Of a stretch of DNA of 24,221 nt, positions 195 through 7,248 are shown one piece after another. The position numbers and the translations under genes were made by a program. The stretch lies in the NCBI GenBank assembly GCA_003151955.1, contig PLZB01000060.1, forward strand, positions 1 through 24,221. Reading direction: 5' to 3'. Position 1 is the stretch's first letter, and each line of letters opens with the position of its first letter. This stretch comes from Acidimicrobiaceae bacterium. GTDB taxonomy: Bacteria; Actinomycetota; Acidimicrobiia; Acidimicrobiales; UBA8190. The notes beneath the pieces are model-generated. The model had not been told where the DNA came from. It saw nothing but the letters and a program-made list of their open reading frames with translations, and did not search any database.

Positions 195-198
195 GTCA

Positions 199-270
199 GA
201 GGATCACCCTGCCCTCGTGGGCTGTTCGGCTCGAGTGCGAACCGGGCAGCCGCGAGGGTCGGGGTGATCT
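199..270 (+). terminator. Long imperfect stem-loop immediately after the TGA at 192-194; a possible intrinsic terminator or structured RNA.
   Basis: Three nested pairings: gatcaccc (202-209) with gggtgatc (261-268); ccctcg with cgaggg; ggctg with cagcc. No U-tract follows, which is common in high-GC actinobacteria. Confidence 0.3.
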
Positions 271-355
271 GACGGCGGAGTTTCGATACGGTGGATCCAG
301 GATCAGAGGTGGAGCCGATCCGACTCGGGTCTTTGGGCTCACGAGCTGGAAACAC

Positions 356-394
356 TTAGTTGCATAGTTAATGCAACTACCGTAGGGTTTGGGG
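356..394 (+). promoter_or_regulatory. TetR operator overlapping a promoter. The operator is the inverted repeat TAGTTGCAT-N5-ATGCAACTA (356-378). The promoter is a -35 TTGCAT (359-364), a 17-nt spacer and a -10 TAGGGT (382-387). The predicted transcription start is close to ATG 395, so the transcript would be leaderless.
   Basis: Perfect 9-bp arms with a 5-bp spacer, lying in the only AT-rich patch of the region, 17 bp upstream of the TetR start codon. The -10 fits the TANNNT consensus and no Shine-Dalgarno sequence is present. Confidence 0.5.
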
Positions 395-1042
395 ATGAGC
401 TTGGGGGCGGACGAGGTGACACGCCCGGCGCCTGCTGTCGACGGGAGAACAGCACGCGGTGAACGGACCCGGAGGGCGCTGGCCCAGGCCCTCATCGACC
501 TCCTCGAGGAAGGCGACCCACAGCCAACGGCCCGCCGTGTCGCCGAGCGGGCCGGGGTGTCGCTCCGTTCGGTCTTCCACCACTTCGAGAACCTCGAGAC
601 GCTCCTGGGGGCTGCGGTTGCCATCCAGAGCGAACGACATTGGGGGCTCATCCGGTCGATTCCGGTCAACCTCCCGGTCGAGGTGCGGATCAGCCGGTTG
701 GTGGAGGAGAGGGCCGGGCTCTTCGAGGCGATCTCGCCGGTTCGCCGATACGGGGTCCGTGCCGGGGCAGGGTCGCCGGCGATCGGGAAGATGATCGCCT
801 CGACGAGGCAGGTTCTCCGGCTGAGGGCACAGGCCATCTTCGCCCCTGAGTTCGAGACCCTCCCCGCCGATGAGGTCCTGACCCACCAGGACGCGCTCGA
901 CGTGGCCACATCCTGGGAGACGTGGGAACAACTCCGGCAGTACTCGGGGTGTTCCCCCGAGTCGGCCAGGCGGGCGATGGAACTCCTGCTGACCTCGATC
1001 CTGGCCCCGCTGGCCGCTCCACCGACCGGAGGCAGAGCATGA
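395..1042 (+). CDS. TetR/AcrR-family transcriptional regulator.
   Basis: The N-terminal helix-turn-helix ([15 protein letters not shown]...[25 protein letters not shown]) is the TetR signature. The reading frame starts at TTG 389 and ATG 395 is the likely start. The stop TGA (1040-1042) overlaps the next gene's ATG (ATGA). Confidence 0.85.
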
Positions 1043-1962
1043 AGATCCTGCGGACACCCGAAGAGCGCTTCGAGGGGCTCGCCGGATATCCCTTCGAGCC
1101 CCATTACGTCGAGGTCCCGACCGGGGACGGATCGGGTGACCTCCGGGTCCACTACCTCGACGAGGGGCCCCGGGGCGCCAAGGAGACGGTGCTGCTGCTC
1201 CACGGGGAGCCTTCCTGGAGCTTCCTCTACCGGAAGATGGTCCCCCTCTTCGCCGCCTCGGGGTTCCGGGTCATCGCCCCCGACCTGGTGGGCTTCGGCC
1301 GGTCCGACAAGCCCGGTGAGCGCACGGACTACACCTACGCCCGCCATGTCGAATGGATGCGGAGCGCCCTCTTCGACGGCCTCGACCTGAAGCACCTGAC
1401 GCTCGTCTGCCAGGACTGGGGCGGGCTGGTCGGCCTCCGGCTGGTGGCCGAGCATCCGGACCGGTTCCGGCGGGTGGTGGCGGCCAACACGGGTCTCCCC
1501 ACCGGTGACGCCCACGTGGGGAAGGCCTTCCAGGCCTGGCTCCAGTTCTCCCAGGAGGTCCCCGAGCTCCCGGTCGGTCGGATCGTGGCCGGGGGATGCG
1601 CCCAGCCCGTGGCCGACGACGTGGTGGCAGGCTACGACGCCCCGTTCCCGGACGAGTCCTACAAGGAGGGGGCACGGCAGTTCCCGGTCCTCGTCCCGAT
1701 CACGCCGGAAGACCCCTCCTCGGAGGCCAACCGGAAGGCATGGGAGGTCCTCCGTGAGTTCAACCGGCCCTTCCTCTGCGCCTACAGCGACCAGGACCCC
1801 ATCACCCGGGGGGCCGACGAGCTCTTCCTGACCGACGTCCCGGGGACGACGGGCCAGGGTCACCGGACCATCGAGGGCGGAGGGCACTTCCTCCAGGAGG
1901 ACCAGCCCCACGCCCTGGCCCTGGCCGTGACGGACTTCATCCACCTGAATCCCCTCGGCTGA
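1039..1962 (+). CDS. Haloalkane dehalogenase of the HLD-I subfamily (DhlA-like alpha/beta hydrolase).
   Basis: Aligns along its length with Xanthobacter DhlA. Matching blocks include [17 protein letters not shown] and [16 protein letters not shown]. It carries the nucleophile motif QDWGG (Asp-Trp), the cap-domain Trp (FQAWLQF), a conserved Asp (SDQDPI) and the C-terminal His (GGHFLQED). A GGAGG RBS lies 6 nt upstream of ATG 1039. Confidence 0.85.
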
Positions 1963-1974
1963 GAGCCGGACCCC

Positions 1975-3501
1975 ATGGGCCGGAAGATCCTCTTCGTCAC
2001 CACGGACCAGCAGCGCTTCGACGCTCTGGGGTGCAACGGGGGGACCGTGGCCCGGACCCCGGTCATCGACAGTCTGGCCGCCGGGGGTCTCAACTATCGG
2101 CGGGCGCACAACCAGAACACCGTCTGCATGCCGGCCCGGTCGACCATGATCACCGGCCAGTACCCCCGGACCCACGGGGTGGTCTCCAACGGGATACCGC
2201 TGCCGGTCGAGGCCCCCTCGATCGCCGGCTACCTCCACGAGGAGGCCGGCTACCGGACGGCCCTCCTGGGGAAGGCCCACTTCCAGCCGGGGATGGACCC
2301 GAAGCACCAGTGGACCGAGAACCGGCTGGCCCATCTCGGGTCGACGGGCCCCTACCGGGGGTTCGAGCACGCCGAGCTGGCCATGCACGGCTACCTCTAC
2401 CAGTGGCACTACGACAAGTGGCTGGAGACCAACTGCCCGGAGTGGATCGGCGGCTACTACCCCCTCCTCTCGGCGGCAGGTCTCAACGAAGAGGGCGGGG
2501 GGGACACCGGGGCGCCCGAGGTGAAGCAGAACCCCATCCCCACTGCCATGTACCACACGGCCTGGGTCGCCGACCGGACGATCGCATGGCTCGACAGCCT
2601 CAGCGCCGACGAGGACTGGTTCTGCTGGATGAGCTTCCCCGACCCCCACCACCCCTGGGACCCCCCCTACGAAGAGGTCCGGAACCGGGTCGACTGGCGT
2701 GATCTCGACCTCCCCCCCGGCCATCCGGGGAGCCGGGAGAAGATCGTCGAGGTCCTGGCCCGGAAGCCCCACCACTGGCTCGACTGGTACGAGGGGCGGT
2801 TCCAGAACCGGGAGGGTGGTCCGGCGAAGTTCGTCCCGGCCGCGATGACCGATGACCAGCTCCGGGAGGTCACGGCCATGATCCACGTCGAGAACGAGCT
2901 CATCGACGAGGCCCTGGGCCGGGTCATGACCCGGATCGGGGAACGGGGCTGGGGCCAGGACACCGACGTCCTCTTCAGCACCGACCACGGGGAGCTCCAG
3001 GGGGACTTCGGGCTCCTCTTCAAGGGGCCCTACCACGTCGACGCCCTGATGCGGGTCCCCCTGGTCTGGCGGCCGGCCCCCTCGGCGGGAACGACCCCGG
3101 CCGAGATCGAGGAGCCCGTCGGCCACCTCGACCTGGCCCCCACCTTCTGCGCCATCGCCGGGGTCCCGGTCCCGGACTGGGTCCAGGGGGAGGTCCTCCC
3201 CACCGCCCCCGGCTCCGGGCGGGAACGGGTCATCACCGAGTGGGAGAGCCAGTTCCCCGACATCGGGATGAAGCTCGAGACGATCTACCGGGACGGCTGG
3301 GTCTGTACCAGCTACGGGGCCGGCCCCCTCTACGAGGGCACCGAGGGGGAGCTCTACGACCTGGCCGAGGACCCCCTCCAGTGGGTGAACCTCTGGGACG
3401 ACCCGGCCCACCGGGCCCGCCGGGAGGAGCTCCTCACCGACCTGGCCGACCACCTCCCTGCCCACCGGGAGCCGGCCCTGGCGGTGGAAGCGCCGGTCTG
3501 A
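1975..3501 (+). CDS. Cys-type sulfatase (arylsulfatase family). It has no signal peptide, so it is predicted to be cytoplasmic.
   Basis: It begins with FVTTDQQRFDALGCNG. The formylglycine motif CMPARSTMITG (C-x-P-x-R) is present, as are the sulfatase metal-binding blocks (SFPDPHHPWDPP, STDHGE). Confidence 0.85.
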   Translation: MGRKILFVTTDQQRFDALGCNGGTVARTPVIDSLAAGGLNYRRAHNQNTVCMPARSTMITGQYPRTHGVVSNGIPLPVEAPSIAGYLHEEAGYRTALLGKAHFQPGMDPKHQWTENRLAHLGSTGPYRGFEHAELAMHGYLYQWHYDKWLETNCPEWIGGYYPLLSAAGLNEEGGGDTGAPEVKQNPIPTAMYHTAWVADRTIAWLDSLSADEDWFCWMSFPDPHHPWDPPYEEVRNRVDWRDLDLPPGHPGSREKIVEVLARKPHHWLDWYEGRFQNREGGPAKFVPAAMTDDQLREVTAMIHVENELIDEALGRVMTRIGERGWGQDTDVLFSTDHGELQGDFGLLFKGPYHVDALMRVPLVWRPAPSAGTTPAEIEEPVGHLDLAPTFCAIAGVPVPDWVQGEVLPTAPGSGRERVITEWESQFPDIGMKLETIYRDGWVCTSYGAGPLYEGTEGELYDLAEDPLQWVNLWDDPAHRARREELLTDLADHLPAHREPALAVEAPV

Positions 3502-3968
3502 GCCGAGGACCTGGAACGTTTCCGCGGAAAGACTTCGGCGTTGGCGCCGGACGTTGCAGTGACCAACGACCGCTACGGTGGTGGAGGTGGCGGACAGAAC
3601 GGGCGGACCGGGTGAGCCGATTGGTGACGACGAAGTCCTCACTCAATACGGCTACGACGACGGCTCAGCTCCGGCGTTCAGGTCGGCGCCCCGAGAGAGT
3701 GACACCGACGGGGTGTCGATGATCCGAGGCGCTCTGGTCGCGACCGAAGCCGCCCGGATGGTTCGAAACGGCAGGACCTCCCCCGATCCAACATTCGACC
3801 GCGTCAGGTTGACCAGGGCCGGAACCCTCCGGAAAGCCGGATTCGAGGTGACCCACACGCCGTCCAAGCGCCTTCCCGGCCATGTGAGCGTCAGCCGGTC
3901 CCAAACCTGGGACGGAGACGTGACCGAGGCCTTTCACCTATGCTTTGGCCGTGTCGAAGGAGGTCAAG

Positions 3969-4430
3969 ATGTCTGATCAGATCCTCCTGGTCCGAGGGAT
4001 GCTCCCGTGGACGCCTTCTCCGGGTGCGGAGCTCCTGAAGGTGTACCACCGGTATGACCAGCCGCTCCAGGGCATCCTCGACCAGGATGGGGCTCTCTAC
4101 CTGTTCGAATGCGTCGCGGGCGAGGTGGGGCCCTGGAGCGTCTGGATCTACAGCTATGTCCAGGCATCCGAGGTTGCCGCCCTCGATGAAGCTGAGGGGG
4201 AAGAATTCGAGGCGCTCGTGGCACATAGCCGGGCCGAGCGGCCCTGCAAGCTCGCACTCTCCATGGAAAATGCGGGAATTGTCGTCGTGGCGAACGTCTT
4301 GGACATGCGGGGCGGGTTGAAAGCTGGCTTCGAGGAACTGGTTGCGCTTTTCAACGAGCATCTCGAAGATCTCCGCCGCGCCAGCGTCGAGATCGAACAC
4401 GCCGACTGGACAAAGCTGGCTGCCAGCTGA
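3969..4430 (+). CDS. Hypothetical acidic protein of 153 aa. It is an orphan gene with no recognisable family, sitting in a lower-GC patch.
   Basis: A strong RBS GAAGGAGG (3956-3963) lies 5 nt before ATG 3969. GC at third codon positions is high in this frame. The product reads as globular (MSDQILLVRGMLPWTPSPGAELLKVYHRYDQPL...). Confidence 0.55.
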   Translation: MSDQILLVRGMLPWTPSPGAELLKVYHRYDQPLQGILDQDGALYLFECVAGEVGPWSVWIYSYVQASEVAALDEAEGEEFEALVAHSRAERPCKLALSMENAGIVVVANVLDMRGGLKAGFEELVALFNEHLEDLRRASVEIEHADWTKLAAS

Positions 4431-4439
4431 TCCCGCGGA

Positions 4440-4776
4440 GTCGCTCGGTCAGGGCGTCCCGACCCTCGGCCGCAGAGGTGCAGAGGCCAACGGGGCCGCT
4501 CGCACGGGGACGCATCCGCGAGCTTCGAAGACCGGAGGTCTGGCGCACCCTCCATGCTGTCCCAGATCTCGCGGGGGGCCAGACCGGTCAGTCCAAACGC
4601 CTGGACCCGCTCCACTACGGTCGACGTCATGGAGAACGTTCCGCTCACATCCTCAGGAGTCCCGAAGGCGTGCACCTCGGGGTCGAGGGCCTCGGGACGA
4701 GAGGCGATGTGGGCTGCGTTTTGTCGATCCAGGGCTGGTAGCTCTTGAGGTCGGGGTAGAACTCGTAGATCCTCAT
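4440..4776 (-). pseudogene. Possible frameshifted gene remnant downstream of the dioxygenase gene.
   Basis: An ATG at 4776-4774 (3 nt after the dioxygenase stop) opens MRIYEFYPDLKSYQPWIDKTQPTSPLVPRPS..., which terminates after about 43 codons. A second minus-strand frame continues in protein-like fashion (HAFGTPEDVSGTFSMTSTVVERVQAFGLTGLAPREIWDSMEGAPDL). No intact long ORF remains. Confidence 0.2.
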
Positions 4777-4779
4777 CGG

Positions 4780-6117
4780 CTACGGGGCGTCGGCCACCCA
4801 GTTCCCGTGGAACCCCTCGGGGACCCGCTGGGGGAGCTCGACGGTGGCGACGGGCTCGGCGGTGACATCCGCGGCGTCGAGGACGAAGAGGTCGGAGGTG
4901 TCCCGGGCGGCGTCGTAGGCGAGGAGGAGGACCCAGCCGTCATCCTCGGCGGAAATGGGACTCCGGGGGACGAAGACGGCCTCACCGATGCCGACTCCGG
5001 CCGGGAAGGTCCGGGCCTGGCTGGTCCCGGCCACCAGGTCGTGCTTCAGGAGGGTGTCGGCCCCGTAGAGGGAGCTGTCCCCGGCGGCGAGGCCGACGGA
5101 CCAGCCGTAGCGGTGGCGGCGACCGACGACCCGCTCGTCGACCCGGGGGAACTCCGAGGGCCGGTCGTCGAGCTGCTCGGTGTGGACCTTCCCGGCGGCG
5201 GGGTCGATGGTCCAGCGCCAGAGGGCGGGGTTGCTCCCGTAGGGGCCGGCCGCCCCCCGGTCGAAGATCCGGTCGTGGCGGACGACGTCGACGACGACGG
5301 TCTCCCCCTCGTCGTAGGCGTTCAGGGGATGGAAGACGTAGGAGGGCTCCATCTCGACCCAGACCACCTCCGAGCCGGGAGCCCCGAAGGGGAGGACCCC
5401 GATCCGGTTCCCGTAGTCCGGGTTCCAGGAGTAGGGGAAGGGGGCGCTCGACAGGTCGAAGGTGACGGGCTGGTCGTAGAAGACGGCCCTCGTCCCCGTG
5501 ATCGACATGTCGTGGACCATGGGGGACCCGGGGACGGGGATGGCCTCGTTGCTGACCACCAGCCCGTCGGTCCCGACGACGAGGTACTGGAGGTGGGGGA
5601 GGCCCCAGTAGTAGGCGCAGGCGTGGAGCTCCCCCGTCACCGGGTCCAGCTTGGGGTGGGCCGTGAAGCCGTTCGGGAGGGTTCCCTGGAAGTCGCTTCG
5701 GCGGACCGTCTCGAGATCCCAGCTGAGCTCGATGGGCCGGGCTCCCGCCTCGACCAGGGCCAGGGTCCGGCCGCCGTGCCCGATCACATTGGTGTTGGCG
5801 GAGAAGTCCATCCCCCCGTGGACCTCCCCCGGGGGGTCGGGCTCGCCCCTGGCCTCGGCGATGGCCTGGTTCCGGACCCACCGGTTCCGGTACCACTCGG
5901 CCTTCCCGGCGCGGAGACGGATCCCGTGGACCATGCCGTCGCCGAGGAACCAGTGGTAGGCGGCCGGGTCGGGCGGGACGAGGGGGTTGGGGCCGATCCG
6001 GAGGTACCGACCCGAGAGCTCCTCGGGGAGCCGGCCCCGGACGGGGAGGTTCGTCGCCGTGACCTCCTCGGCCACGGGGGCGAAGTTGCCGGCCAGGTAG
6101 ACGCTCGTCTCGGTCAT
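4780..6117 (-). CDS. Carotenoid / stilbene cleavage oxygenase (CCD / RPE65 / lignostilbene-dioxygenase family).
   Basis: Family-typical blocks include the N-terminal LSGRYLRIGPNP, FDGDGMVHG-like GDGMVHGIR, HPKLDPVTGEL, FHPLNAY, and a C-terminal EGFHGNWV. I call the start at ATG 6117 (MTETSVYLAGNFAPV) rather than the longer ORF starting at 6177, which would run through the PadR start and the palindrome. Confidence 0.8.
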   Translation of the reverse strand: MTETSVYLAGNFAPVAEEVTATNLPVRGRLPEELSGRYLRIGPNPLVPPDPAAYHWFLGDGMVHGIRLRAGKAEWYRNRWVRNQAIAEARGEPDPPGEVHGGMDFSANTNVIGHGGRTLALVEAGARPIELSWDLETVRRSDFQGTLPNGFTAHPKLDPVTGELHACAYYWGLPHLQYLVVGTDGLVVSNEAIPVPGSPMVHDMSITGTRAVFYDQPVTFDLSSAPFPYSWNPDYGNRIGVLPFGAPGSEVVWVEMEPSYVFHPLNAYDEGETVVVDVVRHDRIFDRGAAGPYGSNPALWRWTIDPAAGKVHTEQLDDRPSEFPRVDERVVGRRHRYGWSVGLAAGDSSLYGADTLLKHDLVAGTSQARTFPAGVGIGEAVFVPRSPISAEDDGWVLLLAYDAARDTSDLFVLDAADVTAEPVATVELPQRVPEGFHGNWVADAP

Positions 6118-6130
6118 CCCCCAGTGATAC

Positions 6131-6149
6131 ACTGTCCATAGTGGACAGT
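6131..6149. promoter_or_regulatory. Inverted repeat ACTGTCCA-TAG-TGGACAGT in the 41-bp gap between the divergent oxygenase and PadR genes; a candidate PadR operator.
   Basis: Perfect 8-bp arms with a 3-bp spacer, centred in the divergent region (6118-6158). Both genes must be transcribed with very short or absent leaders. Confidence 0.45.
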
Positions 6150-6158
6150 CAAGGGAGG

Positions 6159-6683
6159 TTGAACGCGACGGCGGCATCGCTCCTCGGGGTCCTCCGGCGC
6201 CACGGGGAGCTCACCGGGGCCGGGCTGGTCCGGGCCACGCTCCTCGAGATCGGGGAGTTCTTCCCCCTGGCCCGGAGCCAGGCCTACCGGGAGCTGACCG
6301 ACCTGGCCGACCACGACCTGGTGGAGGCCGGCCCCCCCGGCCCCCGGTCCTCCCGCCCCCACCGGGTCACCCGGGCCGGCGAGGTGGCGTTCCTGGAGTG
6401 GCTGGCCCAGACCCCGGGGGAGGACTCCGTCCGGTTCCCCCTCCTCCTCACCATCTCCTTCGGGTCCGACCTCCCCCCGGCCCGGCTGGCCGAGCTCGTC
6501 GACGCCCATGAGGCCCGCCACCGGGAGAAGCTGGCCCGGTACCGGGCCCTCCTTCCCCAGGTGGAGGAGCACGCCGACGCCTTCGTGGCCGCCACCCTCC
6601 ATCTCGGGATCCGCTACCAGGAGGCCACCCTGGCCTGGTTCTCCGAGCTCCCCCCCGAGGTCCGGGGACGGATCAGCCGTTGA
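6159..6683 (+). CDS. PadR-family transcriptional regulator.
   Basis: A winged-helix N-terminus (LLGVLRRHGELTGAGLVRATLLEIGEFFPLARSQAYRELTDLADHDLVE) is followed by a C-terminal helical dimerisation region. The start is ambiguous between GTG 6141 and TTG 6159. I chose 6159 so that the palindrome stays outside the coding sequence. Confidence 0.65.
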   Translation: MNATAASLLGVLRRHGELTGAGLVRATLLEIGEFFPLARSQAYRELTDLADHDLVEAGPPGPRSSRPHRVTRAGEVAFLEWLAQTPGEDSVRFPLLLTISFGSDLPPARLAELVDAHEARHREKLARYRALLPQVEEHADAFVAATLHLGIRYQEATLAWFSELPPEVRGRISR

Positions 6684-7248
6684 ACTGGTGGAGGACGGGG
6701 CCGTCGTGGCCCCAGCCGATCCTCGTCACCGAGGCGGTCGAGAGGTGGAGCCGCCAGGCCAGCTCGTCGCCGAGGCCGAGGGCCCAGGCCACGGCGGCCT
6801 TGATGGGCGAGACGTGGCTCACGACCACCACGTCGGTGCCGGCCCGGGCCCCGGCGCCGTCCTCGGCGAAGAGCTCCCGGCAGGCGCCCCGGACCCGCTC
6901 CCCCATCTCGAGGAGGGTCTCCCCCCCGGGGGGCCGGAAGCCGGGATCGGCCCGCCAGGCCTTCCAGAGATCGGCGGGGACGTCGGCGAGCCTCGTCCCG
7001 TCGAGCTCCCCGTAGTCGACCTCGAGCCAACGGTCGTCGAACTCCAGGGGAAGGTCACCGGCCAGGGCCAGGGCCGTCGCCCGGGCCCGACCCAGGGGGC
7101 TCGAGACGACCCGGCCCAGGCTCGGGAACCGGCCGGCCAGGGCGGCGGCCTGGGCCGATCCCGAATCCGTCAGGGGGGACTCCATCCGGCCCAGTAGGAG
7201 CCCGGCCCGGTTCCCAGCCGACTCCCCATGGCGGACGAGGATGAGCAC
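6673..7248 (-). CDS. Histidine phosphatase family protein (phosphoglycerate-mutase-like; CobC / alpha-ribazole-phosphatase-like).
   Basis: The N-terminal LVRHGES motif (catalytic RHG) and the internal His (VSHVSPI) are present. GTG start at 7248, 4 nt after the stop of the preceding gene. The 3' end overlaps PadR by 11 bp (convergent). Confidence 0.8.
   Translation of the reverse strand: MLILVRHGESAGNRAGLLLGRMESPLTDSGSAQAAALAGRFPSLGRVVSSPLGRARATALALAGDLPLEFDDRWLEVDYGELDGTRLADVPADLWKAWRADPGFRPPGGETLLEMGERVRGACRELFAEDGAGARAGTDVVVVSHVSPIKAAVAWALGLGDELAWRLHLSTASVTRIGWGHDGPVLHQFNG

Follow-up and report, generated by a model that had tools for sequence, protein, structure and literature searches.

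A PadR-family regulator gene and a divergent carotenoid-cleavage-oxygenase family gene around a shared predicted operator in an Acidimicrobiaceae genome

An autoregulated repressor that faces a divergent target gene across a palindromic operator is a classical arrangement, found in PadR, LmrR and LadR and in many TetR systems. The PadR of B. subtilis is a repressor that is released by its ligand, PadR and LmrR use an operator of the form ATGT-N8-ACAT, and the exporter-repressing types, LmrR acting on LmrCD in Lactococcus and LadR in Listeria, both belong to the short subfamily 2. Here we describe a related pair on contig PLZB01000060.1 of an Acidimicrobiaceae bacterium (assembly GCA_003151955.1, positions 1 to 24,221; the whole of this stretch was analysed and is called the window hereafter), whose genes have their closest relatives in the Acidimicrobiales; at ENA the contig is a 24.5-kb metagenome scaffold (ERZ28653421, WOOD18-1). 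In it a gene for a PadR-family regulator (padR) and a gene for a carotenoid-cleavage-oxygenase family enzyme diverge from a perfect palindrome, and our in silico comparisons suggest, with a probability that we put at about 0.6, that the two form a single module in which PadR would repress two interleaved leaderless promoters through one operator until a ligand relieves the repression.

Similar to B. subtilis PadR and V. cholerae AphA, both of solved structure (PDB IDs 5x11 and 1yg2), the window regulator combines a winged helix-turn-helix with a Vir_act_alpha_C domain, and a palindrome lies in its own upstream region with a divergent gene, its probable target, on the other side. However, the palindrome has the core TCCA-N3-TGGA with GAC/GTC flanks and not the ATGT-N8-ACAT of PadR and LmrR, the gene opposite encodes an oxygenase and not the phenolic acid decarboxylase of the B. 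subtilis system, and the favoured start codon of the regulator is embedded in the operator. With LmrR and LadR the locus shares the plan of one repressor, an adjacent gene and a palindrome that would overlap the promoter, although its regulator is of subfamily 1 and not 2 and the gene presumably controlled is for a cytoplasmic oxygenase, not an exporter. The exact bidirectional cassette of the window is found again at three loci of PadR homologues described below (L016, L022 and L063). We found no paper that links PadR to a carotenoid-cleavage oxygenase, and a literature search on the operator of the window's PadR clade (Vir_act_alpha_C, mycobacterial PadR-like and Streptomyces PadR proteins) gave nothing relevant. 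As a repressor and its putative target the pair is ordinary in kind; particular to the window are the oxygenase as target, the class of the operator and the extreme compactness.

The intergenic stretch of the window reads ...GGTCATCCCCCAGTGATACACTGTCCATAGTGGACAGTCAAGGGAGGTTGAAC..., and the features on and around it are the following (aa, amino acids; bp, base pairs; nt, nucleotides).

4780-6117, minus strand: carotenoid-cleavage-oxygenase family gene, 445 aa from ATG 6117, PF03055 (RPE65), the same as public gene call P0121
6141-6683, plus strand: PadR-family subfamily 1 regulator gene, 180 aa from GTG 6141 or 174 aa from the alternative TTG 6159
6131-6149, no strand: predicted operator, ACTGTCCA-TAG-TGGACAGT, a perfect palindrome; by the family consensus the site extends over 21 bp, 6130-6150
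6147-6152, minus strand: putative -35 hexamer TTGACT of the oxygenase promoter, inside padR codons 3-4, as read from the sequence
6124-6129, minus strand: putative -10 of the oxygenase promoter, the hexamer TATCAC, which is without the final T and stands 6 nt ahead of ATG 6117
6125-6133, plus strand: putative extended -10 of the padR promoter, TGaTACACT, 7 nt ahead of GTG 6141
6151-6158, plus strand: Shine-Dalgarno-like AAGGGAGG, which abuts TTG 6159 with a spacing of 0

The regulator and its operator class

Residues 98-169 of the window regulator match PF10400 (Vir_act_alpha_C) with 48.3 bits (cut-off 22.4, E 1.7e-12), and both PF03551 and PF10400 are present in more than 100 homologues at 44-53% identity. 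A profile of 28 PadR homologues with the window regulator as its first row (alignment A1) matches both AphA (1yg2, 1e-21) and B. subtilis PadR (5x11, 2.2e-20) at full length, over positions 12-176, and the recognition-helix motif SQ(V/A)YREL is kept in the window protein. On the strength of the PF10400 match, the two-domain homologues, the full-length profile matches and the conserved recognition helix, we file the regulator as a divergent PadR subfamily-1 protein. The family profile also matches PDB ID 8jxk, a 182-aa PadR-like protein of the same two-domain layout, at 1.7e-16. This accession occurs once in a preprint on the mycobacterial nucleoid-associated protein NapM, and 8jxk may be NapM itself; if it is, certain proteins with this layout may bind DNA broadly and not at one operator.

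A first-pass annotation of this DNA had described a palindrome that fills the space between the two genes at 6131-6149, and this description is exact, with 8 + 3 + 8 bases and no imperfect pair. No second copy was found in the window at up to 3 mismatches (shuffles expect 0.04). Perfect palindromes whose arms reach 8 bp or more, with spacers of up to 6, number 16 in the window, compared with a mean of about 8 in shuffles, and the chance of such a palindrome in this particular gap is about 0.03-0.04; it is the comparative evidence, and not the palindrome alone, that makes the site convincing. That evidence comes from 80 loci of PadR homologues, fetched from at least 592 GTDB matches (mostly Actinomycetota, some Chloroflexia), of which 14.4 kilobases (kb) of upstream sequence were set against the remaining 595 kb as background. 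A search for upstream palindromes showed half-sites that recur ahead of these genes (for example ACTGTCCAC-a-GTGGACAGT in a Jiangellales metagenome-assembled genome). The core YCCA-N3-TGGR occurs 50 times in the upstream sequence, at 41 of the 80 loci, and 37 times in the remainder, which gives densities of 3.47 and 0.062 per kb and a 56-fold enrichment upstream of PadR homologues. Besides the operator, the core is matched in the window at 5645 and 18349, in both cases without the conserved flanks.

From 51 aligned sites a position matrix was derived with the consensus tTGAC(c/a)tTCCAC(t/a)GTGGA(a/c)tGTCAAGG, in which the AGTCAA flank is kept. The CCA/TGG triplets are invariant and all 51 sites have an A at -9, paired with a T at +9 in 48 of them. 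Position -7 is often non-complementary, and G-T and A-C mismatches are equally frequent. Although the palindrome could be folded into an 8-bp hairpin (-10 kcal/mol), base-specific conservation combined with symmetric mismatch types fits contacts made by a dimeric protein and not an RNA stem. Because the motif tracks the regulator gene whatever its neighbour happens to be, the simplest reading is that it is the PadR clade's own operator, and the palindrome is very probably the operator of the window's PadR. The enrichment of this operator class likewise supports the earlier proposal that the two divergent genes share a single palindromic PadR operator.

The sites differ in how they are laid out. 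Nine loci carry tandem operators 33-38 bp apart (L002, L006, L018, L019, L023, L030, L045, L053 and L075), and in these as well as in L167 (3929-3981), a Streptomyces locus, the string GTCAAGG(A/G)GG, which is a Shine-Dalgarno together with a -35-like element, follows the padR-proximal operator only. The window is a compressed version with a single operator, and the offset at which this operator lies recurs at four other loci (L016, L019, L022 and L063).

Start codon and promoter geometry

For the regulator there are two candidate start codons, GTG 6141 and TTG 6159, and the public calls are divided between them, with 180 aa at ENA and 174 aa at JGI. The gap of about 41 bp given in the first-pass annotation holds if TTG 6159 is used (41 bp, 6118-6158), whereas with GTG 6141 it shrinks to 23 bp (6118-6140) and the start falls inside the palindrome. 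We favour GTG 6141, within the right half-site of the operator, as the likely start, since the N-termini of the homologues (MxxRxLNATAAS) lead one to expect a start about five codons before LNAT, since an in-frame (A/G)TG-GAY-AGT lies within the right half-site in L016, L019, L022 and L063, and since the codon equivalent to 6159 is CTG in L016 and L022, where the operator-embedded codon is the sole canonical start. A usable Shine-Dalgarno is absent on both sides, with GGGGG abutting ATG 6117 and AAGGGAGG abutting TTG 6159. The Shine-Dalgarno motif of AAGGGAGG also follows the operator in L046, L033, L019 and L167, where it lies 5-8 nt before the start codon, and it is degenerate in L016 and L063; in the window it is probably a relic of the leader that is used by those relatives whose genes are farther apart.

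On its minus strand the window has TTGACT, followed after 17 nt by TATCAC and 6 nt further on by ATG 6117; L016/L022/L063 have the same TTGACT and 17 nt, then TACGTT / TAGCGT / TACCTT, with the start codon 7-8 nt beyond. On the plus strand TACA(C/T)T stands 7 nt before the embedded start codon (-13 to -8) in the window and in these same three loci, and in the window a TG occupies the extended -10 position. In the window this element overlaps the operator's left arm as well as the -10 of the oxygenase. Judged by the leaderless pattern of TANNNT 6-8 nt before ATG or GTG, padR has TACACT 7 nt before its GTG and conforms, and the oxygenase hexamer is without the final T. With this geometry kept in the window and in three genomes we lean towards both mRNAs being leaderless; the earlier statement that both transcripts must be so was too strong, although it is probable in substance. 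Leadered transcripts that arise from promoters within the neighbouring coding regions are unlikely.

We propose that a PadR dimer, with its winged helix-turn-helix and a C-terminal helical dimerisation domain, would bind the 19-21 bp palindrome at 6130-6150, a site that would overlap two divergent promoters, interleaved with start sites about 24 bp apart. The operator would fill the space between the -35 and the -10 on the oxygenase side and cover -10 to +10 of the padR promoter, and the first four padR codons, GTG GAC AGT CAA, would double as the right half-site and the oxygenase -35. Bound repressor would then shut off padR and the oxygenase alike, until it is released by a small ligand, probably a hydrophobic one. 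Each of the two genes is monocistronic: the gene downstream of the oxygenase is convergent, and the stop region of padR (6673-6683) shares 11 bp with a histidine-phosphatase gene that runs towards it on the minus strand (6673-7248). The consensus scan, which covered 5900-6400, showed no terminator-like structure in that part of padR.

The oxygenase and its pairing with PadR

The oxygenase matches PF03055 from end to end (E 2.1e-111; residues 12-441, profile positions 1-468 of 469). Its iron ligands are His154, His202, His263 and His437 in the motifs FTAHPK, MVHDM, VFHPLNAY and GFHGNW, and these align with the matching motifs of carotenoid-cleavage dioxygenase CCD1 (9luz) and lignostilbene dioxygenase LSD (6ojw). 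In an alignment of oxygenases that extends down to about 30% identity (A3) the four His are invariant, together with Glu123, Glu322 and Glu379, which from the family motifs we take to be second-shell residues. Because the four-His site is intact, the oxygenase should be a catalytically competent non-haem-iron enzyme, and the loss of this site, which the first-pass annotation had named as something that would refute it, is not seen.

The best NCBIfam model is NF052295 (Rv0654-type 8'-apo-carotenoid 13,14-dioxygenase), which is matched end to end with 524.4 bits, below its equivalog cut-off of 675, whereas the lignostilbene models NF053778 and NF053780 score 210 and 172 bits, far below cut-offs of 800 and 650 bits. 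Among solved structures the top match is plant CCD1 (9luz), with LSD (6ojw) in fourth place at 1.8e-55. The window oxygenase has its fold and its four-His iron site in common with LSD, NOV1 and CAO1. In lignostilbene dioxygenase, Tyr-101 and Lys-134 hydrogen-bond the 4-hydroxyl of the substrate and Phe-59 stacks (PMC8191317). In a HMMER alignment to 6ojw the equivalent of Phe-59 is the conserved Phe57, but the Tyr-101/Lys-134 pair is absent, with Lys-134 replaced by Val122 and Tyr-101 in a gap, this last assignment being less certain as the region is a variable loop. MtCCO (Rv0654) of M. tuberculosis acts on apocarotenals and C40 carotenoids, which it cuts at C13-C14 and C15-C15' (PMC5133782). 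The window enzyme has the four-His site in common with MtCCO; the local regulator in the window is a PadR and not a TetR. On balance an (apo)carotenoid- or polyene-type substrate appears likelier than a 4-hydroxystilbene, and the phenolic-alkene substrate of the first-pass annotation fits poorly with both the missing residues and the model scores.

We surveyed 80 metagenome loci (L082-L161) with orthologues at 46-58% identity to the window oxygenase. A TetR-family regulator lies immediately upstream in at least 8 of the 80, divergently in 6, and the window PadR sits in the place that TetR holds elsewhere; the pairing of this PadR with a window-type oxygenase is specific to the window's lineage. 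An AMP-binding acyl-CoA synthetase adjoins the oxygenase in about 20 of the 80 loci, a neighbourhood which hints at cleavage products that become activated as CoA esters.

On the PadR side the divergent neighbours are heterogeneous and include DUF1707, 2TM, DUF4386 and DUF2306 proteins, an MMPL transporter and ABC transporters, and in L016, L022 and L063 the identical compressed cassette precedes ABC-2 exporter operons. The idea that this PadR is a sensor of phenolics, also put forward at first, draws no support from such company, in which ABC-2 exporters, small membrane proteins, the MMPL transporter and unrelated genes adjoin the clade's members. A divergent PadR-RPE65 pair does occur in 3 of the 80 PadR loci, all of them Streptomyces, and in Streptomyces sp. 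IB201691-2A2. In these pairs (L033, L036, L046 and L167) the regulator is of the same clade (47-52% identity), the operator is of the same class and intergenic, and the flanking genes are unrelated between genomes. However, the Streptomyces oxygenase belongs to a different subfamily (27-32% identity, with the insertion EFATDPCRS(L/V)FAR), and in L167 the 84-bp intergenic region holds two operators about 34 bp apart and gives both genes normal Shine-Dalgarno leaders, a two-site layout also seen in L036. The Streptomyces regulator cluster P0019 has 90 member sequences, and the module may be common in that genus. From these comparisons the clade appears to have been joined to RPE65-family oxygenases at least 2 times independently, in the window and in Streptomyces, and as such repeated coupling is unlikely by chance it argues for a functional link. 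By geometry and analogy, the window oxygenase is probably under the control of its PadR. The same repeated joining lends some support to a further and quite tentative idea, that PadR senses what the oxygenase itself cleaves or makes (for instance an apocarotenoid, a retinoid or another polyene) in what would be a ligand-gated switch for carotenoid cleavage; we regard this as doubtful.

Alternative readings and significance

Several observations weigh against the two-gene module as proposed. The pairing is not conserved, and for this reason control of the oxygenase rests on geometry and analogy: neither a PadR of the window's clade nor its operator was found at any of the 80 orthologous oxygenase loci of the metagenome set, and the three closest relatives of the window PadR have other neighbours. 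The N-terminal winged-helix domain PF03551 scores below threshold in the window regulator (14.7 bits, cut-off 27). The oxygenase -10 is imperfect, as the T missing from its end is highly conserved, and a consensus promoter scan of 5900-6400 was empty, under scanner rules (a T demanded as the final base of the -10, and 9 of 12 matches) to which the putative hexamers are invisible. With the NF052295 score short of its cut-off the substrate class is a best guess, and carotenoid-synthesis or rhodopsin genes are found nowhere in the window.

The absence of this PadR from the 80 orthologous oxygenase loci would also suit a palindrome that autoregulates padR only, with the oxygenase as an incidental neighbour that is constitutive or otherwise controlled. 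The TetR or acyl-CoA synthetase genes that adjoin some of the orthologues, the varied neighbours of the PadR relatives and the imperfect -10 hexamer point the same way. What speaks against it is the space itself, since in a gap of 23-41 bp any oxygenase promoter must overlap the operator, and the recurrence of the arrangement, with the identical cassette placed before divergent ABC genes in three genomes and PadR-oxygenase pairs with intergenic operators in four Streptomyces genomes whose flanks are unrelated. We consider it unlikely. Slightly less likely still is the switch for phenolic-alkene catabolism, in which PadR senses a phenolic and the oxygenase is of the lignostilbene or isoeugenol type. 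Some characterised PadR proteins do respond to phenolic acids and the family profile matches the structure of B. subtilis PadR at 2e-20, lignostilbene dioxygenase is a high-ranking structural match of the oxygenase, and the sample is called WOOD18-1, a name suggestive of a lignocellulose habitat; but the residues that would hold the 4-hydroxyl are missing, the apocarotenoid model and plant CCD1 outscore their lignostilbene counterparts, the PadR relatives adjoin exporters and membrane proteins and not aromatic-catabolism genes, and the operator is unlike that of the phenolic-acid PadR.

Two further readings deny the palindrome its role as a protein-binding site. In one, overlapping leadered mRNAs start from promoters inside the neighbouring genes, TTG 6159 is used with AAGGGAGG, and the hairpin modulates translation. 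The stability of the hairpin, the strength of the Shine-Dalgarno-like motif and the JGI start call all agree with this, yet the spacing of 0 nt between motif and TTG, the CTG at the corresponding codon in L016 and L022, and the many sites that stand in tandem upstream of genes do not, and we rejected the RNA hairpin above all on the base-specific conservation, the frequent lack of pairing at -7 and the symmetry of the mismatch types; as a whole it is an improbable account. In the other, the palindrome is a functionless chance feature of a GC-rich genome, for which the twofold excess of perfect palindromes over shuffles could be quoted; with core and flanks upstream of regulators at about half of the PadR loci, the offset kept at four of them, a 56-fold enrichment and a 51-site position matrix, chance is effectively refuted. 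The module of a PadR and an oxygenase under one shared operator is the reading that we retain.

Elsewhere in the window, the long open reading frames at 196-3642 (minus strand, 1148 aa) and 4342-6141 (plus strand, 599 aa) run antisense to real genes and are high-GC artefacts, not genes. A further AT-rich perfect palindrome with 9-bp arms, TAGTTGCAT-agtta-ATGCAACTA, occupies 357-379. It stands 10-16 bp ahead of a TetR-family gene on the plus strand (about 389/395-1042), after which alpha/beta-hydrolase and sulfatase genes come in the same orientation, and it is a likely TetR operator.

The understanding of repressor-operator systems is unchanged by this locus. The regulation of bacterial carotenoid-cleavage oxygenases, however, is little known, and the window locus and the Streptomyces pairs offer what would be a simple regulator-operator-enzyme unit, the inducer of which would point to the physiological substrate. 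The dense dual coding of the window, where the regulator's putative start and first codons would also serve as an operator half-site and as the -35 of the divergent promoter, is a feature in its own right. If PadR does sense a polyene, the locus would amount to a compact biosensor with one 19-bp operator and two leaderless promoters. More generally, the comparison supplies tTGACnTTCCACnGTGGAAnGTCAA as the consensus operator of an actinobacterial clade of PadR regulators that is widespread and apparently uncharacterised.

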